A stretch of DNA of 48,722 bases, taken from contig CADBOE010000053.1 of NCBI GenBank assembly GCA_902796205.1, positions 1 to 48,722 on the forward strand, read 5' to 3'. The notes under the pieces are model-generated. The model saw only the letters and a list, made by a program, of their open reading frames with translations. It was not told where the DNA came from and searched no databases. Both the position numbers and the translations under genes were made by a program. Below are positions 15,774 through 32,440 of this stretch, in pieces (the first letter of the stretch is position 1; each line of letters opens with the position of its first letter). The DNA is from an uncultured Ruminococcus sp. (GTDB taxonomy: Bacteria > Bacillota > Clostridia > UBA1212 > UBA1255).

Positions 15774-15825
15774 CCACTGAAGAGGCGGATAAAGCTCACC
15801 GGGATAGATTCACCCGGACAAAGCA

Positions 15826-15865: not shown

Positions 15866-15884
15866 AGGAGGCTCTGACGGCGTA

Positions 15885-16679
15885 TCAGACCATATCGTCC
15901 ATGCCGTACATGCCCGGTTTCTTCCCGATGATGAACGAAGCGGCCTTCAGGCTCCCGTCGGCGAATACGCTTCGCGACGTGGCGCTGTGCGAAAGCTCGA
16001 TGATCTCGTTTTCCCCGATGAACATAACGCAATGATCTCCGACGATATTGCCGCCGCGAACGGCGCTTATACCGAGCTCGTTCGCGCCGCGCTTCTCCCT
16101 GCGGGACGAACGGTCGAATACGTACTCAAACGGTTCGCCTCTCGCTTCGGAAACGGCGTCAGCGAGAGCGAGCGCTGTCCCGCTCGGCGCGTCGAGCTTC
16201 CTGCCGTGATGCTTTTCAACTATTTCGACGTCGAAATCCCCGCCGAGAAACAGTTCGGATTCGCGGGCAAGCTTTTTGAGCAGAGCGATGCCTACGGACA
16301 TGTTCGCCGAGCGGAATACAGGTATTTCGCAGGAAACAGCCTCGGCAAGCGACAGATCGGCCTTGCTGACGGCGGTGGTGCATAGCACGAGCGGCAGTTT
16401 TCTCGAACGCGCGAATTCCAGAAGCGATCTTGTAAGCGAAAAGTGCGAGAAGTCTATTATAACGTCCGCTTCGATATCTGCAGGAACGGATTTGAAATTA
16501 GCGTAAACGGGGAAGCCGGCTTCGCTTCCGACCTTTCCCGCGAACGAATCGACGCCGCATACTATTTCGCAGCGTTCGCCGTCCTCTGCGCTTTTTCTCG
16601 AATTCAGCGAAGCGGCCTGCTCCGCGACGGCTCTGCCCATATGACCGAGGGCGCCGGACAACAATATTCTTATACTCAT
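15885..16679 (-). CDS. dapB: 4-hydroxy-tetrahydrodipicolinate reductase
   Basis: The true start is MSIRILLSGALGHMGR (GxxGxxG). That ATG overlaps the dapA stop (ATGA at 16676-16679). EKHHGRKLDAPSGTA is the DapB signature. The track's longer 393-aa ORF is a run-on into dapA. Confidence 0.9.
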   Translation of the reverse strand: MSIRILLSGALGHMGRAVAEQAASLNSRKSAEDGERCEIVCGVDSFAGKVGSEAGFPVYANFKSVPADIEADVIIDFSHFSLTRSLLEFARSRKLPLVLCTTAVSKADLSLAEAVSCEIPVFRSANMSVGIALLKKLARESELFLGGDFDVEIVEKHHGRKLDAPSGTALALADAVSEARGEPFEYVFDRSSRREKRGANELGISAVRGGNIVGDHCVMFIGENEIIELSHSATSRSVFADGSLKAASFIIGKKPGMYGMDDMV

Positions 16680-17569
16680 TTCATGGACTCCTCGAATTTT
16701 CCGATAACGGATCTGAGCGTTTCGAGATTTCCTTCCTCCATCTCGCAGAGAGGAAGGCGGCAGCCTCCGACGCCGATCCCTTTTATATTGAGCGCCGCTT
16801 TTACCGGTATGGGATTCACTTCGCAGAACAGTGCTTTTACGAGCGGCATGATCCTTGCCTGAAGCTCCCACGAGCCTTTCACGTCTCCGTTGATATATTT
16901 CATGACCATGTCGTGCATTATTTCCGGATAAACGTTTGACACAACCGAGATGACGCCGCTCCCTCCGGCGCCCATCATAAGCGATACCTGTCCGTCCTCG
17001 CCGGACCATATATTCAGCTCGTCGCCGCATTTGCATCGCACTTCGGACAGCTGGGCGAGATTGCATTCCTTCACGCCGGAGACGTTCGGTATCTTCGACA
17101 GCTCTCTGAGAGTATCCGGAGCAATATTGACGCCGGTCCGCGAGGGAACGTTGTAAAGGATGATCGGCACGTCGACCGCTGCGGCGATCGCCGAATAGTG
17201 CTTTACAAGTCCCTTCTGCGTGGCCTTGTTGTAGTACGGAGTGACCTGCAGAAGCGCGTCGGCGCCGAGCTTCACGGCCTCTTTTGAAAGATTGATCCCG
17301 TGCGAGGTATCGTTTGAACCGGTGCCGGCGATAACGGGTATCCTTCCGGCGACCTTATGCACGGCGTATTCGATTACGGAAAGGTGTTCATCGTCAGGCA
17401 TGGTGGAGGATTCTCCGGTCGTGCCGCATACTATGATCGCGTCCGTATGCCCGGAGATCTGATATTCGATGAGCTCTCCGAACCTGTCGTAATCTACTTT
17501 TTCGTTGTCCCTGCCGGTAAACGGAGTAACTATCGCGCAGCCAGCGCCTGTAAATACCGGTTTTTTCAT
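16676..17569 (-). CDS. dapA: 4-hydroxy-tetrahydrodipicolinate synthase
   Basis: VCGTTGESSTM, YNVPSRTG and the general DapA layout; 297 aa. Confidence 0.95.
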   Translation of the reverse strand: MKKPVFTGAGCAIVTPFTGRDNEKVDYDRFGELIEYQISGHTDAIIVCGTTGESSTMPDDEHLSVIEYAVHKVAGRIPVIAGTGSNDTSHGINLSKEAVKLGADALLQVTPYYNKATQKGLVKHYSAIAAAVDVPIILYNVPSRTGVNIAPDTLRELSKIPNVSGVKECNLAQLSEVRCKCGDELNIWSGEDGQVSLMMGAGGSGVISVVSNVYPEIMHDMVMKYINGDVKGSWELQARIMPLVKALFCEVNPIPVKAALNIKGIGVGGCRLPLCEMEEGNLETLRSVIGKFEESMK

Positions 17570-18770: not shown

Positions 18771-18803
18771 GTTCGGTTCTCCTCCTGAAGCAGAAATTGC
18801 TTT

Positions 18804-18834
18804 ATAAAAATAGGGCCGCCCTGGAGCCGGCGGC
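18804..18834 (-). terminator. Candidate riboswitch expression-platform terminator
   Basis: On the minus strand: GCCGCC, 8-nt loop, GGCGGC, then CCTATTTTTAT, about 35 nt before the asd RBS. The stem is short (6 GC pairs). Confidence 0.45.
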
Positions 18835-18869
18835 GGTGAACGTACATATGATCCGCGCTGATGGTGGCG

Positions 18870-19062
18870 GTCAACATAGCTCTCCACCGCATCCGCTCTA
18901 CGGCAGATGCGCTGACAGTCCGGCCGGTATTCCCGGAAGGACCAGATCCGGTTCCCGCGGAAGTTCCGGCTCTTCGGCGTCTCACCCTTTCGGCCTGCGA
19001 TCTTCCGGCTCCCGCGGGCCGTACTGCCGCCTAATGATGATCGACGCGCCTCTACGCGATAC
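18870..19062 (-). promoter_or_regulatory. Lysine riboswitch (L-box) in the asd-dapA-dapB leader
   Basis: The minus strand reads TAGAGGCGCGTCGATC...GGCCGAAAGGGTGAGACGCCGAAGAGCC...CTGGTCC...CCGGACTGTCAGCGCATC...GATGCGGTGGAGAGC. These match the conserved L-box blocks (AGAGGNGC, GAAAGGG..CGCCGAAG, CTGG, ACTGTCA, GTGGAGAGC) of the B. subtilis lysC and T. maritima elements. Confidence 0.85.
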
Positions 19063-19063
19063 T

Positions 19064-19091
19064 ATCATACCATTTACGCCGCAAATGTCAA
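19064..19091 (-). promoter_or_regulatory. Sigma-70-type promoter of the L-box/asd operon
   Basis: On the minus strand: TTGACA, 16 nt, TATGAT preceded by TGg (extended -10). The predicted start falls at the 5' edge of the riboswitch. Confidence 0.55.
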
Positions 19092-19106
19092 CAGGTTTTT
19101 CGGGGC

Positions 19107-19183
19107 GCGAACCGACGTGCGAACCGGCGGCGCGAACCGGCGGCGCTTACTGACGGCGCGAACCGGCGGCCGCGCAACGGCGG
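19107..19183. repeat. Five direct copies of a 12-nt GC-rich unit GCGAACCGGCGG
   Basis: Exact copies lie at 19119-19130, 19132-19143 and 19158-19169. Copies matching 10 of 12 lie at 19107-19118 and 19172-19183. The array sits between the divergent asd and ABC promoters. Confidence 0.7.
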
Positions 19184-19273
19184 GATCTGCCGCCGCGCGG
19201 TGCGGGCGGAGCTATGACGGAAGGACGTCTGACGTCGGCAAAAAAAACGTCTCCGGAGCGGGCAAAAGTATTA

Positions 19274-19302
19274 TTGACAACGGTACACAAAAAAAGTATA
19301 AT
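19274..19302 (+). promoter_or_regulatory. Consensus sigma-70 promoter of the carbohydrate locus
   Basis: TTGACA (19274-19279), exactly 17 nt, TATAAT (19297-19302), a 12/12 match. It lies ~95 nt upstream of the ATG at 19397. Confidence 0.65.
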
Positions 19303-19396
19303 GTTTTTGTTTATATTGCATAAGATAACGTGGGTCGGGGTGCTCACGCGATTTATGCTATGCAATTCTACTCAGTTTAACGGGAAGGTTGAGCGT

Positions 19397-22300
19397 ATGA
19401 ACAAGAAAAAGAAAAAGATCATCCGCATATCAATCATCCTGGCGGCGATCGTGGCCGTGGCTGTAGTGGTGCTGATACTGTACGGGAACCGCAAGGTTGG
19501 CGCCACTCAGTTTACTGTCAGGAACGTGGATCAGATGGAATTCAATCCGTTCATGTCCACCGAAAACCGCCTGGATAACAGCCTGCTTGAGTACGGTAAG
19601 GTACTTACCAAATACGGGCAGAAGGGCTATACGGACTATACCGGCGAGGATATAGTCGTTGATATGAAAAAGCTCGAATCCGCAGATTCCGGTCAGATCG
19701 TGAGACTCACGGAATTCGAGGGTTACGAAAACGGCATCAGGTTTTACAATCACAGTACGGAAGCGGAGGAGACCGTTGACTGTTCCGGATTCCCGGACGC
19801 CATCTATTCTTCGGCCGACGGTACCACGGTAACGTTTAACGTTGATGTTCCGACGACCGGTCTGTATTCGCTCAATCTCGATTTCCTGATGATCGCGGCA
19901 AAGGATTCCGATATGTACGTCGGCATCCAGATCGACAATAAGCTGCCTTTCAAAAACGCGAGCAACATGACTCTCAAAAGGATGTACGGGTTCTACAATA
20001 CGGACGTCGTGCAGAATCTCGATATCTCCGGAAACCAGATCAGACCCAAATCCCAGGAGCTCTTCGGCTGGCAGAACGTCACGATGTCGAATCCCGAGGG
20101 CGTCTACCGCGGCGAATACAAAATGTATATGAAGGAAGGAACGCGCAAGATAACGATGCGTTTCTACAATCAGCCCGGCGCCATCGGCGGCATCCGCTTC
20201 ACGGCCCCGACCGTCCTGCCCACGTACAGCGAGTATCTGAGCAAGAACGGCGGCGAGGGAGCTTCGTACGGCGGGAATGTGATCCGCTTCGAGATGGAGC
20301 AGCCTGATTATACGTCGAGCGTCAGCATCAGGATGGAATACGACAACGACTTCCGTTCGTCGCCCGCCTCGTACAAGGTCACGAGATATAATGTTTTCGG
20401 CGGCGAGCGCTGGAGCAACGGCGGAGATTCCGTCCAGTGGTCGTTCGGCGTCGAGGAGGACGGATGGTACCAGATCGGCTTCAGGTACAAATCCATAACG
20501 ACAAACGTTGCCTCATATAAAGATATCAGGATCGACGGTGAGATCCCGTTCGCGGAATTCAATGAATACTGCTTCCCGTACGCGGACGGATGGATCGGAG
20601 ACGCTCTCAAGAACGAGAAGAACGAGCCGTACATGATCTATCTTACCAAAGGCGATCACACGATTTCGTTTACGAACAAGATCGGTCCTCTGAGACATAC
20701 GTATTATTCAATAGAAGAATCCATGGATTCGATCACGTCTCTCATCAATCAGGTCGCGAAGATCACTTCCTCCACGAGAAGCTCCTCCGGCGGATACGTG
20801 GTCGACCGCAACAGAGACTGGGATCTTGAGAAAAACATTCCCGAGCTTCAGGACGATCTCGATAAATACGTCGAGGTCTTCTCGAAATGCTACGAGGATA
20901 TTTCGGCCTTCAACGGCGGAAAGCTTCCCTCGTACGGCTCTGCCGTAAAGGTGGCTTACGAGCTGTTCAGGAAAATGGCCGACGACATGGAGAAGGTTCC
21001 CACCTCCCTCAACGATATCAACAGCGCTCTTACCGGTCTCAGCAACACGATGGTCGCCATCCGCGAGCAGGCTGTGACGATCGACTATATGGAGCTTTCC
21101 GGCAAAGGCTACAATTACAGCAACGCGCGGAGCAACTTCTGGCAGGGACTGTACGTCGGCTTCATACGTTTCAAGGATACGTTCATAAAGGATTACTCAT
21201 CGGTCGGTCAGCGCGAGCGTGCCGATAAGGACATGGTCTCTCTCGAGGTTTACGTTTCCCGCGGACGCGAATACGTGGACATTCTGCGCAATCTCGTTTC
21301 CGAACAGTTCACGCCGGACTACGGAGTAAAAGTCAACGTCAACATGGTCAACGGTTCGGAAGGTCTTATAATGACGCGATACGTTGCCGGCACCGCTCCG
21401 GATCTGGCCATTGCCATCGGAGCAGGCATACCGTTCGAATTCTCCGTGAGAGGCGCGCTCCTTCCGCTCGACAAATTCGACAAGTCCTACAAGCTTGACA
21501 ACGGCACCGAGGTGCTGAGCTTCCAGGATCTTGTGGACAGATCGTACTATGAGGAGGAGCTCGTACCGTATCTCTATCAGGGCCATTATTACGGATTCCC
21601 CGAGACTCAGAACTGGGCGGCGCTCTTCTACAGAACGGACATTCTGGCCGAGCTCGACGTGAGACCGCCGGACACGTGGGATGACGTCTACAACCTCGTT
21701 CCGATCCTTACGAAAGACGGATACAGCTTCTATTTCCCGTACGGAGTAGGAAACTATACTCCTTTCCTGTTCCAGCACGGAGGAAGCTTCTATGACGAGG
21801 ACGGACTTCAGTCGAGGCTGAATACCGAGGCGGCATACAGCGCGTTCGTCGAATATGCCGATCTGTATCTGCAGTACAACTTCGTCTACGCCGCGGACTT
21901 CTATATGAGATTCAAAAACGGCGAGATGCCCGTGGGCATAGGAGACATGGGCTTCTACTGCAAGCTTAAATATTCGGCTCCCGAGCTGAACGGCAAATGG
22001 GAGATCCTGCCCGTGCCCGGACATACCGTGCGCAACGATCAGGGCGAGATCGTGGTCGACCGTTCAAACGGCGGAGCCGGAACCTGCAATATCATCATCA
22101 GCAGCACGAAGCACCCCGAAGAGGCGTGGCAGTTCGTGCAGTGGTGGTCTTCCGACGCCGTACAGGCAGAATACGGAAGGGAAGTCGAAGCAACGTTCGG
22201 CGTTGCCTCCAGGTGGAATCCCGCGAACAAGAACGCGGTCGCCACTCTCCCGTACACGCAGGAAGAGCTCGACGTCATATACAAACAGTGGGATTGGCTG

Positions 22301-22504
22301 AAAGAATCTCCGAGCACTCTCGGCGGTTACTACACGAGCCGTTATCTCGTCACGGCGCTGAACCAGACGGTGCTGCAGGGCAAGAACGCCCGCGTGGCTC
22401 TCGAGGACGCCATCAAGGAGATAAACAAGGAAATGAAGCGTAAACAGGAGGAGTACAGGATCGGCGAAGGCGGATCGGTTCTCCGTGAAACTGCAACGCC
22501 GTGA
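19397..22504 (+). CDS. TM-anchored fusion: two CBM-like beta-sandwich modules plus a C-terminal family-1 extracellular solute-binding domain (1035 aa)
   Basis: The start is MNKKKKKIIRISIILAAIVAVAVVVLILY, a single TM with no lipobox. Two internally similar modules follow (TVTFNVDVPTTGLYSLNLDF...IQIDNKLPF and SVQWSFGVEEDGWYQIGFRY...IRIDGEIPF). The C-terminal ~430 aa look like a sugar SBP (APDLAIAIG, WDDVYNLVPILTKDGYSFYFPYG). The track's 19214 start would include the promoter. Confidence 0.8.
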   Translation: MNKKKKKIIRISIILAAIVAVAVVVLILYGNRKVGATQFTVRNVDQMEFNPFMSTENRLDNSLLEYGKVLTKYGQKGYTDYTGEDIVVDMKKLESADSGQIVRLTEFEGYENGIRFYNHSTEAEETVDCSGFPDAIYSSADGTTVTFNVDVPTTGLYSLNLDFLMIAAKDSDMYVGIQIDNKLPFKNASNMTLKRMYGFYNTDVVQNLDISGNQIRPKSQELFGWQNVTMSNPEGVYRGEYKMYMKEGTRKITMRFYNQPGAIGGIRFTAPTVLPTYSEYLSKNGGEGASYGGNVIRFEMEQPDYTSSVSIRMEYDNDFRSSPASYKVTRYNVFGGERWSNGGDSVQWSFGVEEDGWYQIGFRYKSITTNVASYKDIRIDGEIPFAEFNEYCFPYADGWIGDALKNEKNEPYMIYLTKGDHTISFTNKIGPLRHTYYSIEESMDSITSLINQVAKITSSTRSSSGGYVVDRNRDWDLEKNIPELQDDLDKYVEVFSKCYEDISAFNGGKLPSYGSAVKVAYELFRKMADDMEKVPTSLNDINSALTGLSNTMVAIREQAVTIDYMELSGKGYNYSNARSNFWQGLYVGFIRFKDTFIKDYSSVGQRERADKDMVSLEVYVSRGREYVDILRNLVSEQFTPDYGVKVNVNMVNGSEGLIMTRYVAGTAPDLAIAIGAGIPFEFSVRGALLPLDKFDKSYKLDNGTEVLSFQDLVDRSYYEEELVPYLYQGHYYGFPETQNWAALFYRTDILAELDVRPPDTWDDVYNLVPILTKDGYSFYFPYGVGNYTPFLFQHGGSFYDEDGLQSRLNTEAAYSAFVEYADLYLQYNFVYAADFYMRFKNGEMPVGIGDMGFYCKLKYSAPELNGKWEILPVPGHTVRNDQGEIVVDRSNGGAGTCNIIISSTKHPEEAWQFVQWWSSDAVQAEYGREVEATFGVASRWNPANKNAVATLPYTQEELDVIYKQWDWLKESPSTLGGYYTSRYLVTALNQTVLQGKNARVALEDAIKEINKEMKRKQEEYRIGEGGSVLRETATP

Positions 22505-22524
22505 GAGGGGAGAGAGAAGAAATA

Positions 22525-23496
22525 ATGAGCAAGAAAGATTCTTCAAAAGAAGCTGTACCGGCTTCCTCGTCTCAGCCCAAAAAGAGACTGTTTAACGTTG
22601 AAAAGCGCTTCGGATATACGATGCACGAGATCTGGACGCACAAGATGTCGTACGGGCTCGTAGCGCCGTTCTTCATCCTTTTCATCACGTTCTCGCTTTT
22701 GCCGCTGATCGCGTCGCTGTATCTCAGCTTCTGCTACTGGAACATTCTGGAAAGCCCCGTGTTTACGGGATGGCAGAACTACAAATACCTTTTCGTGGAC
22801 GATTCGCTGTTCCTCAAGGCGTTCAGCAATACCCTGTATTACGCGATCATAGTCGGTCCCGTCGCTTACATCGGTTCGTATTTCTTCGCGTGGTTCATCA
22901 ACCAGGTGCCCACGAAGATCAGACCGCTGTACACGCTGGCCTTCTACGCTCCCTCTCTTACGAGCGCCATCGCCATGTCGGTAGTATGGGCGGTAATGTT
23001 CTCGAACGACAGCACGGGATATCTCAACTCCCTTCTGCTGAATCTGAATATCATCTCCGATCCCATCCAGTGGACGCAGGACGTCAACTGGATCATGCCG
23101 GTCGGTATCATCGTCGCGTTGTGGTCGAGCCTCGGCACCGGATTCCTTTCGTTCGTCGCCGGTTTCACCAACGTCGATAAAGAGCTTTACGACGCCGCCG
23201 CGGTCGACGGAGTCACCTCGAGATTCCAGCGTCTGCTTTACGTCGATATTCCGCAGACGATGCCCCAGCTGCTCTTCGCCGCCGTTCTTCAGATCACCGG
23301 ATCTCTTTCTGTCGGCGGAACGCTTGCCGGACATCCCACTCCCGAGGACGCCGGCCTTACGGTCATGCTCCACCTGAGCGACTATTCAGGTACGAGATTC
23401 GAGGTCGGGTACGCCTCCGCCATAGCGGTGGTGCTCTCGCTGCTCATCTTCGGACTGGGCCGTGCCGCATTCAAGATTCTTTCTGACAAGGGGTGA
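22525..23496 (+). CDS. Carbohydrate ABC transporter permease (MalF/CUT1-like)
   Basis: Six hydrophobic segments and the EAA loop ELYDAAAVDGVTSRFQRLLYVDIPQ. The ATG at 22525 follows a purine-rich RBS. Confidence 0.85.
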   Translation: MSKKDSSKEAVPASSSQPKKRLFNVEKRFGYTMHEIWTHKMSYGLVAPFFILFITFSLLPLIASLYLSFCYWNILESPVFTGWQNYKYLFVDDSLFLKAFSNTLYYAIIVGPVAYIGSYFFAWFINQVPTKIRPLYTLAFYAPSLTSAIAMSVVWAVMFSNDSTGYLNSLLLNLNIISDPIQWTQDVNWIMPVGIIVALWSSLGTGFLSFVAGFTNVDKELYDAAAVDGVTSRFQRLLYVDIPQTMPQLLFAAVLQITGSLSVGGTLAGHPTPEDAGLTVMLHLSDYSGTRFEVGYASAIAVVLSLLIFGLGRAAFKILSDKG

Positions 23497-23502
23497 TAGC
23501 AT

Positions 23503-24381
23503 ATGCTCAGAGTAGATCAGGTCGATGTTGATTATTTAAAGAGAGCGAAAAAACGCAAGGACTACGGCGGACGCGTCATTATGGTGTTCCTGACTCTTGC
23601 GGGTCTCGTTTCGATGCTTCCTCTTGTATATCTGGTATGTACGGCGTTCAAGCCGCCCGAGGAGCTTTTCCTTTATCCTCCGACGTTCTTCGTGAAGAAC
23701 CCTACGCTGGGTAATTTCAAGATGCTCTCGCAGGTCACCGCGAACAGCCTCGTACCGTTTACGAGATATCTTTTCAATACGGTGCTCATCACGGTCGCGT
23801 ATCTGTTCTTCCTCGTATGGGTGAACACGATGGCTTGTTATCCGCTTTCCAAGCACAATTTCCCCGGAAAGAAATTCCTGTTCAATATGGTCACGTACTC
23901 GCTGATGTTCATTGCCTCGGCAGCCGGCATCCCGCTTTACCTGATCATTACGGGGCTGCATCTGGACAACACCTATCTCGTATTCGTCATACCGGGTCTC
24001 GCCAACTCAACGGCGCTGTTCCTCATGAAGCAGTTCATGGATCAGGTGCCGAACGAGATATTCGAGGCCGGCAAGATCGACGGAGCGTCCGAATGGCAGC
24101 TTTATCAGAGAATAGCTCTTCCGCTTCTCAAGAACGCCCAGGCCACGATCATAATCCTCTGCTTCGGAGGAATATGGAACGAGTCCGGCACCTCCACCAC
24201 GTACATTTACAAGGAGCAGCTCCGTTCGCTCGGATTCTTCATGTCAACGATCGGCGGAGGCATAGCGCGACAGGGCGTCGCGGGCGTTACGGCTCTTATC
24301 ATGACATTCCCGAGCATCATCATTTTCGTGATCCAGCAGAGCAGGGTCATGGATACGATGGCGCACTCCGGTATTAAATAA
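23503..24381 (+). CDS. Carbohydrate ABC transporter permease (MalG/CUT1-like)
   Basis: EAA loop EIFEAGKIDGASEWQLYQRIALPLL; 292 aa; 6-nt gap from the upstream permease. Confidence 0.9.
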   Translation: MLRVDQVDVDYLKRAKKRKDYGGRVIMVFLTLAGLVSMLPLVYLVCTAFKPPEELFLYPPTFFVKNPTLGNFKMLSQVTANSLVPFTRYLFNTVLITVAYLFFLVWVNTMACYPLSKHNFPGKKFLFNMVTYSLMFIASAAGIPLYLIITGLHLDNTYLVFVIPGLANSTALFLMKQFMDQVPNEIFEAGKIDGASEWQLYQRIALPLLKNAQATIIILCFGGIWNESGTSTTYIYKEQLRSLGFFMSTIGGGIARQGVAGVTALIMTFPSIIIFVIQQSRVMDTMAHSGIK

Positions 24382-24394
24382 GGAGGCAGTATCG

Positions 24395-26506
24395 ATGAAA
24401 AAGAAAACCTTCAAGCTGCTCATCCTCATGCTTATCGTGGCTCTGTTCGTTACGGGCGTCGCGGTCGTTAACGCCCGCGAACCGTACGCCAGCTATTATC
24501 TGGGGGACAACGGCGCTTATCCGATCCCGGCCCCGTACGAGGTGCTGACCGTGATCGACTTCAAGACAACCGAGGAGGGCAGGCTCGCGAATCCGGAGGA
24601 TATATTCATTGACGACAACGACGTCATTTACGTCGCCGACACGGCCAACGACCGTATCGTCATAATCAATCCGATGGACGAGACCGGCACCTACACTCTC
24701 AGGAACATCATAAAAGGCGAGGGCTCGTTTTCATCCGGCGATATGTCGGCGATGAAGACTCCCAAGGGCATCTACGTCGATTCGGACGGATCGATACTGG
24801 TCGCCGACACCGGAAACAACCGCCTCGTCGAATTCACAAAATACGGCTTCTTCAAATACTCGTACGCTTCGCCTACGAGCACGATTCTTTCGTCGGAGTT
24901 CAATTACATGCCGCTTAAGGTGACGAAAGATACGAGAGGTTACATCTACGTCGCGAACTCATCCGACTCGAACGGTATTCTGATGCTCGACAACGACGGT
25001 GCGTTCCGCCAGTATTTCGGTGCAAACAAAGTGGCGCTCTCTTTCTGGGAATCCATCGCCCGCCTTCTGTGGGACCGCGAGGACCGTCTCGGAACGGTCG
25101 TCACGCTTCCGTATTCTTTCAATAACATCTACGCGAGCGACGACGGCTACATCTACGCAACCACGACGACCGTCACGCCGCCGCAGGTCAGAAAGATCAA
25201 CGCGGGCGGTTCCGACGTCGTCTATGCCGGTTACGATTTCCGCGACACGTACATCACACGTTCCCAGGGCGGAACGGCCGCTCAGAACTTCTGCGACGTT
25301 TCCGTCGACAAGCTCAACAACATGCTGATCGTCGACCAGCAGTACGGCCGTATCTACGAATATGACGAAAACGGAATAAACCTTTTCGCCTTCTCGACAA
25401 ACGGCAACGGCTACGGCCAGCTCAGCCTGCCGAGCGGAATAGAAGTCGACAGTCAGGGCCGCGTTTACGTGTTGAACAAGGGCAGCGGAACGATAACCGT
25501 TTTCCAGACCACGGAATTTGCAGCGCAGATTCACGACGCGAACGCCATGTACGCGCAGGGCAAGTATCAGGACGCGTTCCCGCTCTGGCAGAAGGTTCTC
25601 GACAGAGACAGCTACTATAACCTCGCGCTCAAAAACATGGGCGTCATCCATATGCGCGAAGAGGAATATAACGACGCTATAAAATATTTCTATCAGGCCG
25701 AGGACGCCACTCTCGCGTCGCAGGCCTTCAAGGAGATCAGGTCGGAATTCCTGCGCCAGCATTTTCCGCTGATCGCTTCGATACTCGTAGGCGTGGTTGT
25801 CCTGTGGCTCGTGCTGATCAGCATAAAGCAGGCGAGAAGACGCAAATACGGTCCGCCGCCGGAAAAAGTGAATTTCTTTACTCCCGTGAAGAACTTTTTC
25901 GGCAGGATAAAGAACGTTCTGCGCCATCCCATCGACACGTTCGAGGCTATCAGATATGAGAACCAGGGCTCGTACGCGGATATGTTCATCATCATGATCG
26001 TCTGGACCGTGGTGAACGTCGTTTCTGCATACTGCGTCGGTTTCATATACAGAGGCGGCACGCCGCTTGAATTCATAAGGCCGATGACGCTTATTCTTTC
26101 GGCGGTCCTTCCGTGGCTCGTTGTCTGCACCGTGAACTACGGTGTGACGACGATAATGTACGGCGAAGGAAGGCTCAGGGACGTATTCATCGGCGGAGCG
26201 TACTGCCACGTACCGCTTATGCTGTTCACGCTTCCTCTGTCTCTGCTCACAAATCTGCTGACTCTTGACGAGGCTTCGCTTTACAATCTTATTAACAGAC
26301 TCGTATACGTCTGGGTAGGTCTTCTGGTTTACCTGTGCATAAAGTCGATCCACGGATTCCATCCGGTGAAGGCGGTCGTCGTCACGTTCGTCACGCTGAT
26401 CGGCGTTGCGCTCGTGGTACTGCTCTTCATGATCGTTTACGGCATGGCGAACCAGCTGTTCGACTTCGTTACCCAGTTTGCAAAGGAGTTGAGTTATCTT
26501 GTCTGA
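24395..26506 (+). CDS. Fusion of signal peptide, six-bladed NHL-repeat beta-propeller, TPR-like segment and polytopic Yip1-like membrane domain
   Basis: Six NHL-like blades are visible, for example VIYVADTANDRIVIINP, SILVADTGNNRLVEF and RVYVLNKGSGTITVF. A TPR-like stretch follows (YAQGKYQDAFPLWQKVLDRDSYYNLALKNMGVIHMREEEYNDAIKYFYQA). The last 250 aa contain about 6 hydrophobic helices. Confidence 0.75.
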   Translation: MKKKTFKLLILMLIVALFVTGVAVVNAREPYASYYLGDNGAYPIPAPYEVLTVIDFKTTEEGRLANPEDIFIDDNDVIYVADTANDRIVIINPMDETGTYTLRNIIKGEGSFSSGDMSAMKTPKGIYVDSDGSILVADTGNNRLVEFTKYGFFKYSYASPTSTILSSEFNYMPLKVTKDTRGYIYVANSSDSNGILMLDNDGAFRQYFGANKVALSFWESIARLLWDREDRLGTVVTLPYSFNNIYASDDGYIYATTTTVTPPQVRKINAGGSDVVYAGYDFRDTYITRSQGGTAAQNFCDVSVDKLNNMLIVDQQYGRIYEYDENGINLFAFSTNGNGYGQLSLPSGIEVDSQGRVYVLNKGSGTITVFQTTEFAAQIHDANAMYAQGKYQDAFPLWQKVLDRDSYYNLALKNMGVIHMREEEYNDAIKYFYQAEDATLASQAFKEIRSEFLRQHFPLIASILVGVVVLWLVLISIKQARRRKYGPPPEKVNFFTPVKNFFGRIKNVLRHPIDTFEAIRYENQGSYADMFIIMIVWTVVNVVSAYCVGFIYRGGTPLEFIRPMTLILSAVLPWLVVCTVNYGVTTIMYGEGRLRDVFIGGAYCHVPLMLFTLPLSLLTNLLTLDEASLYNLINRLVYVWVGLLVYLCIKSIHGFHPVKAVVVTFVTLIGVALVVLLFMIVYGMANQLFDFVTQFAKELSYLV

Positions 26507-28997
26507 TAAGCAAATAAAGAACAAATCAAAGGCTGCGCCTCTTACCGCGGAAGAAAAAGCCGCGAAGAAGCTCCAGAAAAAATTTGACAGAGTCGACAAG
26601 AAATTCTCCTGGCTCACCGTGGTCAAGATCGTCGTTCCGCTCGTCGTGATCGCGATCATCGTCTTCGTTCTCATCAAGGCGGCCTTCGGAAACAGCAAGA
26701 ATATCAAATTCGACACTTCGTCCTTCTCGAAATCCGACGCGTCGCCGGTGGATACTTCGAAGGGGATCAACGGTCAGCTGCTTTCCGATTCCGGTATGAC
26801 GATATTCGCCGACAACGGAAAGCTGCGCCTCGGCTACTCTCCCAGAGACGACCTGTTCATCATACAGGACCTTTCGTCCGGAAGAGTTTTCAGGAGCTAT
26901 CCCGAGCCGCTGCATTCCGATCCCGGCGCTGAAGACAACGCCGAAGCCGAAGCCGATCTCGCTCTCTATTCCAGAAGCACCGAGACAGGGCAGATCATCA
27001 CTTCCCCCGTGTTTATCGAATACACGAAATCCGGTATGGAAGGCGGATTCACCAAAGGCATAAATCAGATGACGCAGCTGACGAAGACCGTTTATTTCAT
27101 CAAGGACGGCGTCCAGCTCGTATATGACGTCGGCGATCTCGATCTGAGCTTTGCGGTCGAGATCACTATCGAGGACAATTCTCTCGTATATAAGATCCCG
27201 TTCAACGAGATCAAGGAAAGGGAGACTCTTTACGGCGAGGAAAGCGACAGGAGACCCTTCCTGTGCGCCCTTTCGGTCCTGCCTTATCTCGGAGCCCACA
27301 GGAACGGCGATTCCGGTTTCTTCGTGACTCCCGACGGCTCCGGATCGCTGACTTACTTCGACGTTGCCCGCGTTTCGAACTATACCGAGTATTCGAAGAA
27401 GATCTACGGCACGGACGTCACTTTCGACTCGCTCGACGCTCCCGATTACAGTAACGAACTGCTGACGATGGGCGCGTACGGCATCGTTGACGACGAATAC
27501 ATGCTCACCTCGTTCATCGATACGGCTGAGGCGAACGCGGAGCTCAAGATCGGTAATCCCGGCGTCAGAAGCCTTCCGTTCTACAACATCTACTTCGAGT
27601 TTACGTACAGGTATTTCTACCGTATGCAGATGTCCAAGGACGGCACCCAGTATCAGATGGTCATAAAGGATCAGCAGATAGGCGACGCCGTTCAGCACGT
27701 GTACTTCGATTCGAAGCCCGGATTCACTCCTGAAGAGGGGAAGGAGACCGCGCATACATACGTCGATGTCGCTCTCAAAACGCGCGAACTGCTGCTCGCA
27801 AAATGGAAGAATCAGTGGGGCGTGGAAGGGAAGAGCGTAACGGATGCCGAGCCTCCGCTGAATCTCAGGTTCTTCATGGGAGCACAGACGAGCTCCGGCG
27901 GCATACTCAACCAGCTCAAGGTGACCACGACGTTCAACGACGTCAGAAATATCACGGATGAGCTCGGAACGGAAGGCTTGAACGACATGAGGCTCACGCT
28001 TCTCGGCTGGACGAAGGGCGGCTATTTCTGGAATGCGACAAAGAAGAACAAAGTCGATTCGAAATTCGGAGGCAAGAGCGGCCTCAGATCGCTGAACGCC
28101 TGGGCGGCGGACAAAAATCTGTCTCTCGCTCTCGACAACAACCTCCTTTACATCTACGGCAATCCGTCCTCCGGAGCGACGCTCAGAAATTCGGTCGTAA
28201 AGAAGCCCAACACGTTCTATCTTGACTTCTATACGAATACGACGTTCGGACGCCTTTACCGGAGCGGTTATTACATGAGCCCCGTTTACTACAACAACAA
28301 GCTCATCGGAAAGCAGATCTCGAACCTCAGGAGCTACGGCACGGAAAACGTCGCTCTCCAGCAGCTCGGCGACGTTCTTTACACGGACTACAACGAAAAG
28401 AACGCGCTTACGAGAGCTCAGTCCCAGGCGATGTACGTCGAATGGATAAAGAAATACCGCGAGAATTTCGATCACGTATCGGTGTACAGCGGCAACGACT
28501 ACGCCGTTGCCTTCGCGGATACGGTCGACAATATCCCGATGAACAAGTCTTCGAGGATCATCCTTGACGAGCAGATTCCGTTCATCCAGATCGTATATCA
28601 CGGGCTTGTCGAATATTACGCCAGTCCTCTCAATATGCAGGACAGACCCGACGTGGCTCTTCTCAGGGCTCTCGAATACGGAGCAAACGTTTCGTACGAG
28701 ATCACGAACGAGGAGATCAACCTGCTGATGTATACCAACTACGTGTTCCTTTACAAGGGACAGTACACGCTGCTCAAGGACGAGATCATCAATTCGTACA
28801 AGGCCGTCAGCGAGGCTGTGAAGCCTTTCACGACTCAGTCGATCAAAGACCACAGAAGGATAGAGCCTTACGTGGACGTGTTCTGCACGGAATATTCGGG
28901 CGGAGCCAGGGTTTACGTGAACTATACCGGTTCCGATTACACGCTGCCTGACGGTAACGTTGTGAAGTCCATGAATTATCTCGTGGTCAATGCTTAA
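26499..28997 (+). CDS. N-terminally anchored extracytoplasmic protein, DUF5696-like, possible glycoside-hydrolase-like fold (832 aa)
   Basis: The TTG start has AAGGAG 10 nt upstream and overlaps the previous stop by 8 nt. The product has a Lys-rich cytoplasmic tail, the TM VVKIVVPLVVIAIIVFVLI and a ~770-aa ectodomain. The family name is from memory of similarly arranged loci and was not searched. Confidence 0.6.
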   Translation: MSDKQIKNKSKAAPLTAEEKAAKKLQKKFDRVDKKFSWLTVVKIVVPLVVIAIIVFVLIKAAFGNSKNIKFDTSSFSKSDASPVDTSKGINGQLLSDSGMTIFADNGKLRLGYSPRDDLFIIQDLSSGRVFRSYPEPLHSDPGAEDNAEAEADLALYSRSTETGQIITSPVFIEYTKSGMEGGFTKGINQMTQLTKTVYFIKDGVQLVYDVGDLDLSFAVEITIEDNSLVYKIPFNEIKERETLYGEESDRRPFLCALSVLPYLGAHRNGDSGFFVTPDGSGSLTYFDVARVSNYTEYSKKIYGTDVTFDSLDAPDYSNELLTMGAYGIVDDEYMLTSFIDTAEANAELKIGNPGVRSLPFYNIYFEFTYRYFYRMQMSKDGTQYQMVIKDQQIGDAVQHVYFDSKPGFTPEEGKETAHTYVDVALKTRELLLAKWKNQWGVEGKSVTDAEPPLNLRFFMGAQTSSGGILNQLKVTTTFNDVRNITDELGTEGLNDMRLTLLGWTKGGYFWNATKKNKVDSKFGGKSGLRSLNAWAADKNLSLALDNNLLYIYGNPSSGATLRNSVVKKPNTFYLDFYTNTTFGRLYRSGYYMSPVYYNNKLIGKQISNLRSYGTENVALQQLGDVLYTDYNEKNALTRAQSQAMYVEWIKKYRENFDHVSVYSGNDYAVAFADTVDNIPMNKSSRIILDEQIPFIQIVYHGLVEYYASPLNMQDRPDVALLRALEYGANVSYEITNEEINLLMYTNYVFLYKGQYTLLKDEIINSYKAVSEAVKPFTTQSIKDHRRIEPYVDVFCTEYSGGARVYVNYTGSDYTLPDGNVVKSMNYLVVNA

Positions 28998-29011
28998 GGG
29001 AGGGATTCAAA

Positions 29012-29905
29012 TTGGCAAAGAAACCCGTTAAATATAAGAAAAAGCTTGCTCATAAGGCTACGATCAAATTCGGGTCTTTCGAGCGGCGCCGCGGGCTTGA
29101 AGGATGGGCCTTCTCGCTTCCGTGGATAGTCGGATTCATATTGCTTATGATTCTGCCGCTTTTCCTTTCCATCAGGACGAGCTTCTTCGAGACGAAGCTC
29201 ACCGACCCGTTCGGCTTCGACGGAAACAGTATGTTCGTCGGATTCGACAACTACGTCGAGGTGGTAAAGGATCCCGCGTACGGCGAAGTCGTGTTCAACT
29301 CGTTCCTCACCTCGCTCTACAAGGTTCCGGTCGTGGTTGCCTTCGCTCTGTTCGTGGCGGTGCTCCTTAAGCAGAATTTCCCGGGAAGAACGATCTTCCG
29401 CGTGATATTCTTCATACCCGTCATTCTTGCCGGCGTTATCATGTCGTACCTGTTCAGCGACAGCGTGGGTTCGATAAGCGTATTCTCCACGCTGACCTCA
29501 TCGCAGACGTTCGGCTTCGTTTACAAGATATTCGGAAACGAGATCATCTCGCAGATCGGTACGATCATGTGGGCGAGCAGCGTCGAGATACTTATCTTCC
29601 TTGCGGCTCTGCAGAGCGTTCCGGCGATCCTCTACGAAGTCGTCGAGCTCGACGGAGCCACCGCATGGGAATCGTTCTGGCACGTTACGCTTCCTTACGT
29701 TTCTCCGTTCGTCATACTGAACTGCATCTACGCTCTGGTCGATACGTTCGTTGACGCGAGAAATCCGGTTATGAACCTGCTGAGCACCCTTAACGCAGCC
29801 GGCAACAAATATGGCGTTGCGGCCGCGCTCAGCTGGATGTACATGCTGGCGACGCTCCTGGTTATTCTCATCTTCATTCTGCTGACAAAGAGGTGGTTGC
29901 GATGA
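29012..29905 (+). CDS. Carbohydrate ABC transporter permease (second system, MalF-like)
   Basis: TTG start with AAGGGAGGG upstream. EAA loop ILYEVVELDGATAWESFWHVTLPYV. Confidence 0.85.
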   Translation: MAKKPVKYKKKLAHKATIKFGSFERRRGLEGWAFSLPWIVGFILLMILPLFLSIRTSFFETKLTDPFGFDGNSMFVGFDNYVEVVKDPAYGEVVFNSFLTSLYKVPVVVAFALFVAVLLKQNFPGRTIFRVIFFIPVILAGVIMSYLFSDSVGSISVFSTLTSSQTFGFVYKIFGNEIISQIGTIMWASSVEILIFLAALQSVPAILYEVVELDGATAWESFWHVTLPYVSPFVILNCIYALVDTFVDARNPVMNLLSTLNAAGNKYGVAAALSWMYMLATLLVILIFILLTKRWLR

Positions 29906-30912
29906 AGGCATTTTTCGGAAAAATCGTAGGGAAGATCAAGGGCCTTATCGATAAATACAAAAGTCTCGGCTACCGGGCCAAGAAAAAGATCAGATTTATC
30001 ATAGGCAGAGTCTTCCTGTATTTCGTGCTTATCGAACTGGCGTATCTGTTCATACTGCCGTTCATATACATCTTCACCACTTCGATGATGAGCTATCAGG
30101 ACTATCTGGATCCCACCGTCAAGTGGATCCCCACAAGTATTCACTGGAAGAACTACTCCGACGCCTTCAAGGGTCTTTCGTACTTCGGAATGTTCAAGGG
30201 TGATTCCGGCGACAAGGTATTCATGTCGTCCTTCCTCAACACGTGCATTACGTCGTTCGGAAGCGCGATATTCCAGAGTATTTCGTGCGCCATTATCGGA
30301 TACGCTCTCGGAAGATTCAAGTTCAAGGGCAGGAATATCGTATTCCTTACGGTTATCCTCGCCCTGCTGATCCCGCCCCAGACGATGATCATCGCCACGT
30401 ACGGAATCTGGTCGAAGCTCGGCATGATCAACACGTTTATGCCCATATTGCTGCCCACGCTCTTCGGACTCGGTATCCGCGGCGGACTGTTCGCGCTCAT
30501 CTACATGTATTTCTTCCAGAGGATACCGGACGCGATGGACGATGCCGCGAGAATTGACGGCGCCGGACCGTTCCGCGTATTCCTCCAGATAATGCTTCCT
30601 CTTGTGAGATCGGCTATCGCGATAGTATTCATTTTCTCTTTCGTGTGGCACTGGAACGACAACTATGAAGCTCCGATGTATATGTACAGAGACAGGATGC
30701 TCACGCTTCAGCCCAAGCTCCAGCATATCAAACAGTATTTCGCCGATCTGATGGGCGATACCGGTTCGGATTCCGACCCGATCAGGAAGGCCATGTCCGA
30801 ACCGACCCTTTTCGCAGGCTGCCTTCTGGTCCTGCTTCCCGTGCTGATCGTATTCATCGTGGGGCAGAAGAAGCTCGCGGCCGGTATCGAACGTATCGGC
30901 GTTATCGAGTAA
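29902..30912 (+). CDS. Carbohydrate ABC transporter permease (second system, MalG-like)
   Basis: The ATG at 29902 overlaps the upstream stop (ATGA). EAA loop MDDAARIDGAGPFRVFLQIMLPLV. Confidence 0.85.
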   Translation: MKAFFGKIVGKIKGLIDKYKSLGYRAKKKIRFIIGRVFLYFVLIELAYLFILPFIYIFTTSMMSYQDYLDPTVKWIPTSIHWKNYSDAFKGLSYFGMFKGDSGDKVFMSSFLNTCITSFGSAIFQSISCAIIGYALGRFKFKGRNIVFLTVILALLIPPQTMIIATYGIWSKLGMINTFMPILLPTLFGLGIRGGLFALIYMYFFQRIPDAMDDAARIDGAGPFRVFLQIMLPLVRSAIAIVFIFSFVWHWNDNYEAPMYMYRDRMLTLQPKLQHIKQYFADLMGDTGSDSDPIRKAMSEPTLFAGCLLVLLPVLIVFIVGQKKLAAGIERIGVIE

Positions 30913-30928
30913 GAAAGGATAAAGTTTT

Positions 30929-32368: not shown

Positions 32369-32379
32369 TTTTCCGGGTA

Positions 32380-32412
32380 TTGACAAATAGCAAAAAAATA
32401 GTATAGTATAAT
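32380..32412 (+). promoter_or_regulatory. Internal near-consensus promoter ahead of the last SBP gene
   Basis: TTGACA (32380-32385), 16 nt, TATAGT (32402-32407), overlapping a TATAAT at 32407-32412. It lies in the only long (72-nt) intercistronic gap of the operon. Confidence 0.55.
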
Positions 32413-32440
32413 CTGCAACTAACAAATGGAGGTATGTTTG

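Follow-up and report, generated by a model that had tools for sequence, protein, structure and literature searches.

The genes described here appear, with a probability that we put at roughly 0.6, to form a module for the capture of an extracellular glycan at the membrane, its cleavage, and the import of the products by two ABC transporters. Three large ectodomain proteins (g1, g4 and g5), all tethered to the cytoplasmic membrane according to predicted topology, are encoded between or beside two distinct permease pairs of the CUT1 type, and sugar import is indicated by the solute-binding protein (SBP) domain of g1, which resembles oligosaccharide SBPs.

Organization of the Transcription Unit

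Open reading frames and junctions of g1 to g5 were re-derived from the window, i.e., the whole 48,722-nt stretch of DNA that was analyzed, and matched the earlier coordinates exactly. The junctions g1/g2, g2/g3 and g3/g4 comprise 20, 6 and 13 nt, and g4 and g5 overlap by 8 nt, in complete agreement with the earlier note, which had described these five genes as a tightly coupled unit. Beyond position 28997 the coupling runs on: g6, g7 and g8 follow with spacings of 14, -13 and 16 nt, and g9 after a further 57 nt. All features described between 19274 and 35942 lie on the forward strand. The claimed 12/12 consensus match of the promoter likewise held true: the sigma-70-type sequence TTGACA-17 nt-TATAAT is located at 19274–19302 and is the sole 12/12 site within 18800–36200. 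Both hexamers are kept in five related loci, and conservation among relatives extends from the promoter to about 25 nt past it but not into the upstream sequence. Comparison with related loci places the beginning of a conserved leader block directly 3' of the -10 hexamer. The 5' leader (19303–19396), which matched no family in Rfam, contains an inverted repeat (19315–19328/19353–19366; 14 nt, 86% complementary) as well as the conserved stretch TTTTTGTTnATATTGCATAA, which resembles an operator. This stretch may act as an operator-like element, a role that we infer and that suggests regulation.

A strong intrinsic-terminator-like hairpin at 33811–33833 (9-bp stem with six GC pairs, T tail) is the best terminator-like site of the region and likely marks the end of the transcription unit. 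The best explanation for this arrangement is a unit of nine genes (19274–33833), the front part of which is formed by g1 to g5. An 11/12 promoter-like site is present upstream of g9 (32380–32407). The adjacent g10 (33852–35942) encodes a 696-aa cytoplasmic protein of unassigned family, possibly a lineage-specific accessory, that had no match in Pfam, NCBIfam, PADLOC or PDB, even with a four-sequence profile, and that among the fetched loci is present solely in the closest ones (L001, L003 and L004). Housekeeping genes surround the operon, namely asd/dapB, which comes with a lysine riboswitch, and metA; no regulator gene adjoins it in the window.

Binding Proteins and Permeases

HMM scans reproduced every domain that the earlier note had assigned to g1–g5. 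The first gene (g1, 19397–22504) encodes a giant binding protein of 1035 aa that is anchored in the membrane by an N-terminal TM helix. Pfam, AF2 and Foldseek together assign to it, besides this helix, two beta-sandwiches of the CBM6/35-like kind, a helical bundle and, at the C-terminus, an oligosaccharide SBP of family 1. Pfam places SBP_bac_1 at residues 629–924 (E 6e-24), while the CBM_35 match of 23.9 bits is sub-threshold (cut-off 28 bits); CBM_35/CBM_6 matches were found in relatives of g1. The AF2 model (pLDDT 87) contains one TM helix, the two sandwiches, which resemble each other weakly, the helical bundle and the SBP, and its best Foldseek matches are oligosaccharide SBPs. A single N-terminal membrane anchor is predicted for g1 and also for g5.

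Permease pair A is formed by g2 (22525–23496; MalF/UgpA-like, BPD_transp_1, UgpA/GlcT-like in NCBIfam) and g3 (23503–24381; MalG/UgpE-like, BPD_transp_1, UgpE-like), pair B by g6 (29012–29905; UgpA/PhnU2-like, with a BPD_transp_1 match of 24.4 bits, slightly below the cut-off) and g7 (29893–30912; BPD_transp_1, UgpE/MalG-like), the first 13 nt of which overlap g6. The translations of all four ABC importer permeases show EAA-type loops for an ATPase, and an ATPase gene was found neither in the module nor among the scanned ORFs of the window. Two lipoprotein SBPs follow, g8 (30929–32368; lipobox AFAGC, SBP_bac_1 E 6e-19) and g9 (32426–33775; lipobox LAAC, SBP_bac_1 and SBP_bac_8). SBPs of the g8 type occur in the clade of the window and in some others but are missing from other modules, and many lineages encode no SBP dedicated to pair B at the locus.

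Family-1 SBPs and paired BPD_transp_1 permeases with EAA loops are shared with the CUT1 importers (TC 3.A.1.1) of Gram-positive bacteria, e.g., MalEFG, MsmEFG and UgpABE, and as in those served by a shared MsmX/MsmK ATPase, an ATPase gene is lacking at the locus. Unlike these importers, the module locks two permease pairs together, features as its main SBP a TM-anchored protein of 1035 aa in which two CBM-like sandwiches and a helical bundle are fused to the SBP domain, and has three extra conserved membrane/ectodomain components between the permease pairs.

Conservation of the Module

A relative of g5 is encoded in 493 of the scanned species genomes, and the DUF5696 family comprises 3512 clusters at 50% identity (E <= 1e-30). 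From other genomes 77 loci were fetched; the fetched set represents the 80 best matches and is for this reason skewed toward DUF5696 proteins of the module type. The complete collinear module is present in 65 of the 77 loci. Contig ends truncate the remaining 12, which are nonetheless collinear, and no locus conflicts with the order. The constant order is the CBM-SBP giant, two permeases, NHL-TPR, Yip1 (fused or separate), DUF5696 and two permeases. Six informative metagenomic contexts (plus a partial one), reached from distant, independently picked homologues of g1 and g5 and carrying precomputed Pfam labels for Yip1 and DUF5696, have the same order, which is thus identical in all 83 informative contexts. 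Carriers belong to the Clostridia, Ruminococcus, Paenibacillus and Bacillus and include one Chloroflexi genome; cultivable ones are Paenibacillus eucommiae, P. polysaccharolyticus and Ruminococcus flavefaciens Y1.

Spacing is conserved as well. The median gap between the NHL-Yip1 and DUF5696 genes is -8 nt (<=30 nt in 40/40), that between DUF5696 and the g6 orthologue, always directly downstream, is 2 nt (<=30 nt in 73/73), and that between permease and permease is 6 nt. Orthologues of pair A lie upstream and those of pair B downstream of DUF5696 in 67 of 75 loci for g2/g6 and in 67 of 77 for g3/g7. Measured against the window copies, sequence identity drops in parallel for all seven proteins (r = 0.74–0.99). 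A self-contained, vertically coherent core module of seven to eight genes best explains these observations. The recurrence of similar clusters in Firmicutes, mentioned in the earlier note, is thereby borne out, as is the co-conservation of the NHL-Yip1 and DUF5696 genes with the transporter genes; the proposed five-gene unit is indeed conserved but was drawn too small, the second permease pair always following DUF5696.

The flanks of the module vary and often contain cytoplasmic exo-glycosidases or AraC-type two-component regulators. In other lineages GH95 with GH130, two GH35, GH38, GH30, GH29-like proteins, GH20 with PIG-L, and AraC-type two-component systems were found; no flanking family recurs across lineages. 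In Paenibacillus the module is followed by a histidine kinase of the Cache type and a response regulator of the AraC type, in the Chloroflexi locus an AnmK-beta-lactamase fusion adjoins it, and in Ruminococcus flavefaciens the genes after it encode a membrane GDPD and an acyltransferase_3. One locus (L080) features GH20, PIG-L, a beta-lactamase-like protein and an M19 peptidase, and another (L020) a Mur-ligase gene upstream, at a position where several related Clostridia loci have ORFs that are similar in size, the only property compared.

The DUF5696 Protein and Its Relationship to GH129

The type-II membrane-anchored protein g5 (26499–28997), the ectodomain of which spans about residues 65–832, matches DUF5696 (PF18952, E 3e-128). 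In its AF2 model (pLDDT 82, pTM 0.85) a (beta/alpha)8 barrel is framed by two beta-sandwiches, and Foldseek retrieved GH129 with E 1e-32 and GH101, GH36 and GH31 at 1e-16 to 1e-11. A profile of the g5 family matched GH129 sequences (E 5e-6), and HHalign of DUF5696 against NagBb plus the window paralogue gave a probability of 99.7% and E 3e-25 at about 16% identity. Judged from profiles and modeled fold, DUF5696 is a membrane-anchored, divergent homologue of GH129/GH101 glycosidases, which places its fold with GH129 and removes it from the orphan folds. The processing role envisaged for this component in the earlier note fits such a fold and homology; its orphan status does not stand. A true GH129 is encoded in the same window (46880–48709, E 4e-121 to NagBb) and bridges DUF5696 and GH129 by sequence.

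The three-domain architecture and detectable homology link g5 to the alpha-N-acetylgalactosaminidase NagBb (PDB 5wzn) and the 3,6-anhydro-D-galactosidase ZGAL_3152 (PDB 5opq). These enzymes differ from g5, which is membrane-anchored, matches DUF5696 and not Glyco_hydro_129 in Pfam, and does not retain both catalytic residues of NagBb. The NagBb nucleophile D435 aligns at or near D625 of g5, where Asp occurs in the clade of the window only, although the alignment of the beta4 loop is unstable (D435 at column 619 with HMMER, between 623 and 624 with HHalign); the acid/base E478 aligns with Tyr663. Invariant polar residues of the family are D279, D306, R371, D630, Y668, D690, H701 and N712, and all of these except Y668 are kept down to 24% identity. 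Catalysis by g5 is plausible rather than proven, since the canonical GH129 pair is not kept across the family. ZGAL_3152, the domain architecture of which is that of the g5 model, has an acid/base different from that of NagBb and an essential Asp in its N-domain and is nevertheless active (PMC5698469).

The NHL-TPR-Yip1 Protein

With regard to g4 (24395–26506), Pfam reports NHL (64 bits), TPR_1 and Yip1 (46.7 bits, cut-off 28.6). A signal peptide is followed by an extracellular NHL beta-propeller, TPR, one TM helix, a short cytoplasmic linker and a Yip1 domain with five more TM helices. Blade motifs indicate four clear and two degenerate blades, and the PDB matches are six-bladed NHL proteins; the propeller might bind a ligand, act as an enzyme or serve as a sensor. 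NHL-TPR-TM and Yip1 are two separate genes in 34–35 of the related loci and are fused elsewhere.

The Yip1 family (PF04893) comprises the eukaryotic Golgi proteins Yip1p/Yif1p as well as bacterial and archaeal homologues without known role. While g4 shares the 5-TM domain, neither Rab GTPases nor vesicles are involved here, and unlike its Golgi counterparts it is either fused to an extracellular NHL-TPR part or encoded next to one, within an ABC importer operon, an arrangement for which the literature found describes no bacterial precedent. Yip1p acts through binding of other membrane proteins (PMC5898192). The earlier statement that components 4 and 5 have no experimentally defined bacterial role agrees with our literature search, which found none for g4- or g5-type proteins in such a context.

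Proposed Function and Alternative Readings

In the proposed mechanism, the two CBM-like sandwiches of g1 would hold a polymer or large oligosaccharide close to the membrane and the DUF5696 barrel of g5 would cleave it, probably as an alpha-retaining glycosidase using Asp630 and Asp690 together with Asp279 and Asp306 of the N-domain instead of the canonical pair of GH129. Pair A would receive its substrate from the SBP domain of g1, while pair B would import a second product, via g8/g9 where present, both transporters being driven by a shared MsmX/MsmK-type ATPase encoded elsewhere. NHL-TPR-Yip1 may serve as a membrane-embedded organizer or as a ligand-binding partner of g5; NHL-TPR undergoes fusion and fission with Yip1, and the 8-nt overlap with DUF5696 is conserved. 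Substrate specificity probably differs among lineages, as suggested by the varying cytoplasmic glycosidases beside the module.

In Sus-like systems or utilisomes of Bacteroidota and in gpPULs, glycan binder and enzyme of the surface are encoded together with an importer of their own. The module follows the same logic of binder, enzyme and importer with variable glycosidases downstream. It differs in lacking SusC/SusD, in the anchoring of its components in the cytoplasmic membrane, and in an invariant core, with substrate-specific enzymes outside and no regulator inside.

Turnover of an envelope glycopolymer in place of dietary foraging, with fragments of own or neighboring peptidoglycan, teichoic acid or exopolysaccharide re-imported beneath the wall, is an unlikely alternative. 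It would agree with ectodomain proteins that are all anchored in the membrane and not in the wall, with the setting of the window operon, which lies amid housekeeping genes, has no regulator and follows a promoter of perfect consensus, and with some flanks (AnmK-beta-lactamase, GDPD, acyltransferase_3, GH20/PIG-L/M19, Mur-ligase). However, no flanking family is common across lineages, the foraging enzymes GH95, GH130, GH38, GH30 and GH35 and AraC-type two-component systems occur elsewhere, g1 carries CBM6/35-like modules, which are typical of polysaccharide foraging, and the conserved operator-like element 3' of the promoter suggests regulation. It also appears improbable that DUF5696 is a non-catalytic pseudo-glycosidase that, together with the NHL propeller, acts only as a glycan-binding receptor concentrating ready-made oligosaccharides for the two importers. 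The variable nucleophile column and the Tyr at the acid/base position of g5 would be expected of such a protein, but the charged and polar set invariant down to 24% identity resembles an active site, and the related ZGAL_3152 is active despite its altered acid/base (PMC5698469).

A sensing device, in which NHL-TPR-Yip1 and the giant SBP perceive a glycan outside the cell and relay a signal through the membrane, with transport being secondary, is very improbable: g4 has no cytoplasmic output domain, its linker comprising only about 50 residues, regulators are missing from the core and most flanks, and the presence of EAA loops in four permeases speaks for transport, even though PknD, the extracellular sensor domain of which is an NHL domain, is among the g4 matches (PDB 1rwi) and a histidine kinase and response regulator follow the module in Paenibacillus. 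SBPs, permeases and glycosidase-like proteins are each common in Gram-positive sugar loci, and two ordinary, independent sugar importers could have come to lie next to an unrelated secreted enzyme by chance or loose adjacency, with NHL-Yip1 as a passenger. This explanation is strongly disfavoured by the same order in 83/83 informative contexts, conserved overlaps and spacers, components diverging in step, the fusion and fission of NHL-TPR and Yip1, and the intact transfer of the module between unrelated genomic contexts.

No paper that mentions the DUF5696 module family was found. The gene set is strictly conserved yet unstudied and includes a new relative of GH129 and a Yip1-type protein without known role in bacteria; its Gram-positive carriers most likely use it for the uptake of sugar polymers.

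Organization of the Operon and of Its Upstream Region

The operon comprises nine consecutive genes on the forward strand (g1 to g9). For the first five, the ORF calls exactly reproduce the positions and spacings described in the earlier note: g1 (19397-22504), encoding a giant protein that joins CBM-like domains to a solute-binding (SBP) domain, g2 (22525-23496, 20 nt after g1) and g3 (23503-24381, 6 nt after g2) for permease pair A, g4 (24395-26506, 13 nt after g3) for an NHL-TPR-Yip1 protein and g5 (26499-28997, overlapping g4 by 8 nt) for a DUF5696 protein. The domains proposed for these proteins were all recovered by Pfam scan, the CBM_35 match of g1 lying below threshold. While the coupling of the five genes thereby stands, their delimitation as a five-gene unit does not, as the coupling runs past 28997 into g6-g9. 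Here, g6 (29012-29905, 14 nt after g5) and g7 (29893-30912, overlapping g6 by 13 nt) encode a second permease pair, termed pair B, and are followed by g8 (30929-32368, gap of 16 nt) and g9 (32426-33775, gap of 57 nt), both encoding SBPs with lipoprotein signal sequences. The best terminator-like hairpin of the region (33811-33833, +) is located directly 3' of g9 and precedes g10 (33852-35942, +), the gene for a 696-aa cytoplasmic protein. Promoter-like sites matching the consensus at 11/12 positions were found on the same strand before g9 (32380-32407) and before g10 (33782-33810), such that these two genes may be separately expressed.

The 12/12 consensus promoter previously assigned to the operon was confirmed (TTGACA-17 nt-TATAAT, 19274-19302) and is the sole 12/12 match in the region 18800-36200. 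Related loci share this promoter together with some 25 nt following the -10 hexamer, but not the sequence further upstream. The block immediately 3' of the -10 hexamer (TTTTTGTTnATATTGCATAA, within 19303-19366, +) is kept in five related loci, and the leader carries a 14-nt inverted repeat (19315-19328/19353-19366, +); block or repeat may constitute an operator or a leader hairpin. Leader and operon did not match any riboswitch or known RNA family in Rfam. The sole Rfam match is a lysine riboswitch (RF00168, 18869-19062, -, 73 bits) that precedes the divergent asd/dapB genes. Together with an 11/12 promoter-like site with TG extension (19091-19064, -), it occupies the left portion of the intergenic region 5' of g1. 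The stretch separating the g1 promoter from that of the riboswitch contains a GC-rich 13-nt unit (GCGCGAACCGGCG-like) repeated four to five times in tandem (19110-19170, +).

The neighbors of the operon are housekeeping genes, i.e., asd and dapB on the opposite strand behind the lysine riboswitch and metA downstream. A Pfam scan of the operon and its flanking ORFs did not reveal a transcriptional regulator in the operon. Four further ORFs of the window, 36997-38589 (530 aa), 8152-10473 (773 aa), 4314-6368 (-, 684 aa) and 3120-4211 (363 aa), have no Pfam match at E ≤ 1, while 1481-3082 encodes a CotH-kinase-family protein and 38594-39889 a leucine-rich-repeat protein.

Conservation of the Gene Set

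The genes for three membrane-tethered ectodomain proteins and for two distinct CUT1 permease pairs are inherited together, as a single unit. When one genome per species was scanned with an alignment of DUF5696 sequences, relatives were present in 493 genomes. The 77 best loci were retrieved and their ORFs labeled with profiles derived from the window proteins, the loci studied being the 80 best matches plus a few samples. The complete order of g1-like giant SBP, permease, permease, NHL-TPR, Yip1, DUF5696, permease and permease was found in 65 of these 77 loci, the remaining 12 end at contig edges yet are collinear, and none contradicts the order. The suggestion that the genes form a conserved unit is hence clearly borne out by their co-conservation. 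The same order, read from precomputed Pfam labels, recurs in six further contexts, reached from the most distant g1 and g5 homologs and from two members of an exhaustive representative search. Carriers include metagenome-assembled genomes of Clostridia from rumen and gut, isolates of Ruminococcus flavefaciens, members of Paenibacillus, Bacillus and Pseudalkalibacillus and one Chloroflexi genome. The DUF5696 family itself amounts to about 3500 clusters at 50% identity (E ≤ 1e-30). Full-text literature searches retrieved no paper on this gene combination and none on DUF5696.

Median spacers are tight (-8 nt between NHL-Yip1 and DUF5696, 2 nt between DUF5696 and the following permease, 6 nt between the permeases). 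Identities to the window copies drop jointly in all seven proteins, from about 80-95% to about 25-40% (r 0.74-0.99), and the orthologs of pairs A and B stay on their own side of the DUF5696 gene (67 of 75 loci for g2/g6, 67 of 77 for g3/g7). NHL-TPR and Yip1 are encoded by a single gene in 40 loci and by two adjacent genes in 34-35, the NHL-TPR protein retaining a C-terminal TM helix in the split form.

DUF5696 Proteins and Their Relation to GH129

The g5 protein matches DUF5696 (PF18952) with 429 bits against a cut-off of 25.6 (E 3e-128) over profile positions 6-612 of 612, and hydropathy indicates one N-terminal membrane anchor. In its AF2 model (pLDDT 82, pTM 0.85), this TM anchor precedes a (beta/alpha)8 barrel that is flanked by one N-terminal and one C-terminal beta-sandwich. 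Foldseek placed GH129 enzymes at the top (ZGAL_3152/5opq, E 1e-32; NagBb/5wzn, E 6e-27), followed by GH101, GH36 and GH31, and a three-domain architecture like that of the g5 model has been described for ZGAL_3152 (PMC5698469). Furthermore, the g5 family profile matches GH129 sequences collinearly (E 5e-6), and comparison of the g5 family (74 sequences) with NagBb and a GH129 paralog from the window by HHalign gave a probability of 99.7% (E 3e-25, 556 columns). Profile, fold and HHalign comparisons were the only successful routes, direct sequence searches of g5 against PDB chains yielding no match.

The paralog just mentioned (46880-48709, -) is located about 18 kb from the operon and encodes a 609-aa cytoplasmic protein without signal peptide or TM helix. 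It matches NagBb (5wzn) over its full length (phmmer, E 4e-121), retains D435 ("SYLDVF") and E478 ("PSSEE") of that enzyme and is, judging from its sequence, a genuine GH129 alpha-N-acetylgalactosaminidase homolog. DUF5696 is linked to GH129 by sequence because this protein also matches Pfam DUF5696 (E 8e-15). The product of the adjoining gene (46023-46778) is small and combines an F5/8 type C (discoidin) domain with a PT-rich linker. Taken together, AF2 fold, Foldseek, profile and HHalign results place DUF5696 in the GH129/GH101 superfamily, as a divergent branch whose members are membrane-anchored. On the other hand, the predicted enzyme shares fold and homology with GH129 but fails the sequence-model test for that family, g5 giving no match to Glyco_hydro_129 (PF11308) at E ≤ 0.01.

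Assignment of catalytic residues by alignment to NagBb or ZGAL_3152 was tried and rejected, as the registers conflict. NagBb D435 falls at g5 column 619 (HMMER) or beside D625 (HHalign), neither being conserved family-wide, and the alignment of the beta4 loop is unstable; E478 aligns with Tyr663 in g5, but with Asp/Glu in distant clades. Invariant residues of the family are D279, D306 and R371 in the N-domain and D630, Y668, D690, H701 and N712 in the barrel. The spacing of D630 and D690 (60 residues) is similar to that between the catalytic-barrel Asp residues on beta4 and beta6 in GH31 and GH36. ZGAL_3152 retains only the nucleophile of the NagBb pair and depends on an N-domain Asp contributed by the partner monomer (PMC5698469), a precedent for catalytic rearrangement within the GH129/GH101 superfamily.

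In the g5 alignment (loci L001-L076), the clade of the window protein has Asp at 625, Tyr at 663 and, in most loci, Asp at 619, a column occupied by A/V/T in the window protein and its nearest relatives. The Ruminococcus, Oscillospiraceae and Paenibacillus clades feature Ser/Thr/Ala at 619 and 625 and Asp/Glu at 663, those of Ruminococcus and Oscillospiraceae additionally having Asp at 687. This reciprocal distribution of acidic residues suggests that either the catalytic layout differs among clades or the alignment is locally incorrect.

The Giant SBP and NHL-TPR-Yip1 Proteins

Hydropathy of g1 indicates one N-terminal anchor. In its AF2 model (pLDDT 87), a TM helix is followed by two beta-sandwiches, a helical bundle (430-600) and the SBP domain (610-1020), for which Pfam reports SBP_bac_1 at residues 629-924 (E 6e-24). 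By sequence and fold comparison the latter resembles malto-, cello-, sophoro- and cycloisomalto-oligosaccharide binding proteins. The beta-sandwiches (about 110-270 and 295-428) are modeled with high confidence and have weak mutual similarity; the CBM_35 score of g1 is 23.9 bits against a cut-off of 28, and some relatives match CBM_35 or CBM_6.

In g4, a signal peptide is followed by the NHL domain, TPR and a TM helix (459-477), which a cytoplasmic linker of about 50 residues connects to a Yip1 domain with five TM helices, as deduced from hydropathy and Pfam. The NHL part (64 bits) carries four canonical blade motifs, at about 78, 134, 310 and 357, between which lie two degenerate blades, and its matches include six-bladed Pizza6, TRIM71 and PknD. 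Yip1 (PF04893, residues 507-678, five predicted TM helices) scores 46.7 bits against a cut-off of 28.6, and Yip1 labels are precomputed on g4 orthologs in the six further contexts. A homolog search restricted to the Yip1 part returned 11 fragments and no new gene context.

Transporter Components and Flanking Genes

All four permeases match UgpA/UgpE/MalG-type models and contain EAA-type loops in their translations; BPD_transp_1 is above cut-off for g2, g3 and g7, g6 scoring 24.4 bits vs. 26.4. SBP_bac_1 or SBP_bac_8 is also present in g8 and g9, and such separate lipoprotein SBPs occur in some lineages only, up- or downstream of the conserved gene set. An ABC_tran ATPase was found neither within the conserved gene set of any locus examined nor among the window ORFs scanned. 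For CUT1 importers of Bacillota, the ATPase is usually supplied in trans.

For the g10 protein, searches of Pfam, NCBIfam, PADLOC and PDB yielded no match, also when a four-sequence profile was used. It is kept at the same position (70-72% identity) in the closest loci only (L001, L003, L004); it may be a cytoplasmic enzyme for the imported product. A role in anti-phage defense was considered and rejected, g1, g4, g5 and g10 having no PADLOC match.

A Pfam survey of 89 flanking ORFs, together with 20 scanned singly, revealed no shared family that would represent a universal extra partner. Flanking genes encode a Cache-type histidine kinase and an AraC-type response regulator in Paenibacillus, regulators adjoining the gene set in some lineages only, two GH35/GlmA-like enzymes with a GFO/IDH/MocA oxidoreductase in Bacillus and Pseudalkalibacillus, and GH95 with GH130 in Oscillospiraceae. 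Further types feature GH38 with beta-helix proteins, GH30, a GH29-like enzyme or GH20 with PIG-L, and some flanks, including that of the window, are plain housekeeping genes. The core behaves as a portable platform. In R. flavefaciens-type loci, a gene for a protein of 603-630 aa is always located 3' of the set (L050 14200-16068, L073 14168-15976, L076 13915-15804, L082 12124-13938); in L050 and L082, the two scanned singly, it encodes a membrane GDPD (GPDPase_memb + GDPD), followed in L050 by an acyltransferase_3 gene. For that clade, this flank suggests a possible connection with teichoic acid or phosphoglycan. In the Chloroflexi locus (L042), a gene directly downstream (14836-17226) encodes AnmK (anhydro-MurNAc kinase) fused to a beta-lactamase-fold domain.

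Discussion

One ectodomain protein of the conserved unit, g5, is a homolog of retaining alpha-glycosidases, and another, g1, joins CBM-like sandwiches to an oligosaccharide-type SBP. We propose, at a probability of about 0.6, that the unit captures a glycan at the surface, cleaves it and imports the products via two ABC permease pairs. Polymer would be captured by g1 and cleaved by g5, the SBP domain of g1 would hand the product to pair A, and pair B would take up a second product, via g8/g9 where present. A shared ATPase would energize both transporters in trans, and the NHL-TPR-Yip1 protein would serve as organizer or co-receptor. A fixed membrane supercomplex, in which NHL-TPR-Yip1 physically couples a g5-type anchored enzyme, representing a new family of GH129-related glycoside hydrolases, and the CBM-bearing tethered SBP to the two translocators, is a tentative extension that we consider rather doubtful. 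Cleavage and uptake would then be channeled in a Gram-positive counterpart of the Bacteroidota utilisome, and bacterial Yip1 proteins would acquire their first defined role.

Recycling of envelope glycopolymers is rather unlikely; in the form of peptidoglycan recycling it is raised by some flanking genes and constitutes a minority reading. With regard to g5, we lean slightly towards a catalytically active protein in view of its predicted fold and invariant residues, and a non-catalytic receptor appears improbable. A sensing device is very unlikely, and loose adjacency of unrelated genes is essentially excluded by the conservation data.

Under the preferred reading of surface capture, cleavage and import, the logic is like that of Gram-positive PUL and Sus-type systems, and the transporters are ordinary CUT1 members with SBP and paired permeases. 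The unit differs from these systems by the invariant pairing of two translocators, by the giant tethered SBP with its CBM-like domains, by a predicted DUF5696 enzyme that falls outside the GH129 sequence model and does not clearly share the NagBb catalytic residues, and by an NHL-TPR-Yip1 component without described bacterial role. In addition, Gram-positive PUL contain a regulator in the locus, whereas the window operon is devoid of one.

Glycan foraging by Gram-positive bacteria of gut, rumen and soil is understood far less than the Sus systems of Bacteroidota. The unit described here is widespread (at least 493 species genomes), invariant in order and contains three conserved components without assigned function. 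Its elucidation could establish a new glycoside hydrolase family, assign a role to bacterial Yip1 and NHL-TPR proteins and reveal how cleavage at the surface is linked to ABC import. Rumen and gut metagenomes contain thousands of proteins labeled "hypothetical" or "extracellular solute-binding" whose annotation would improve as well.
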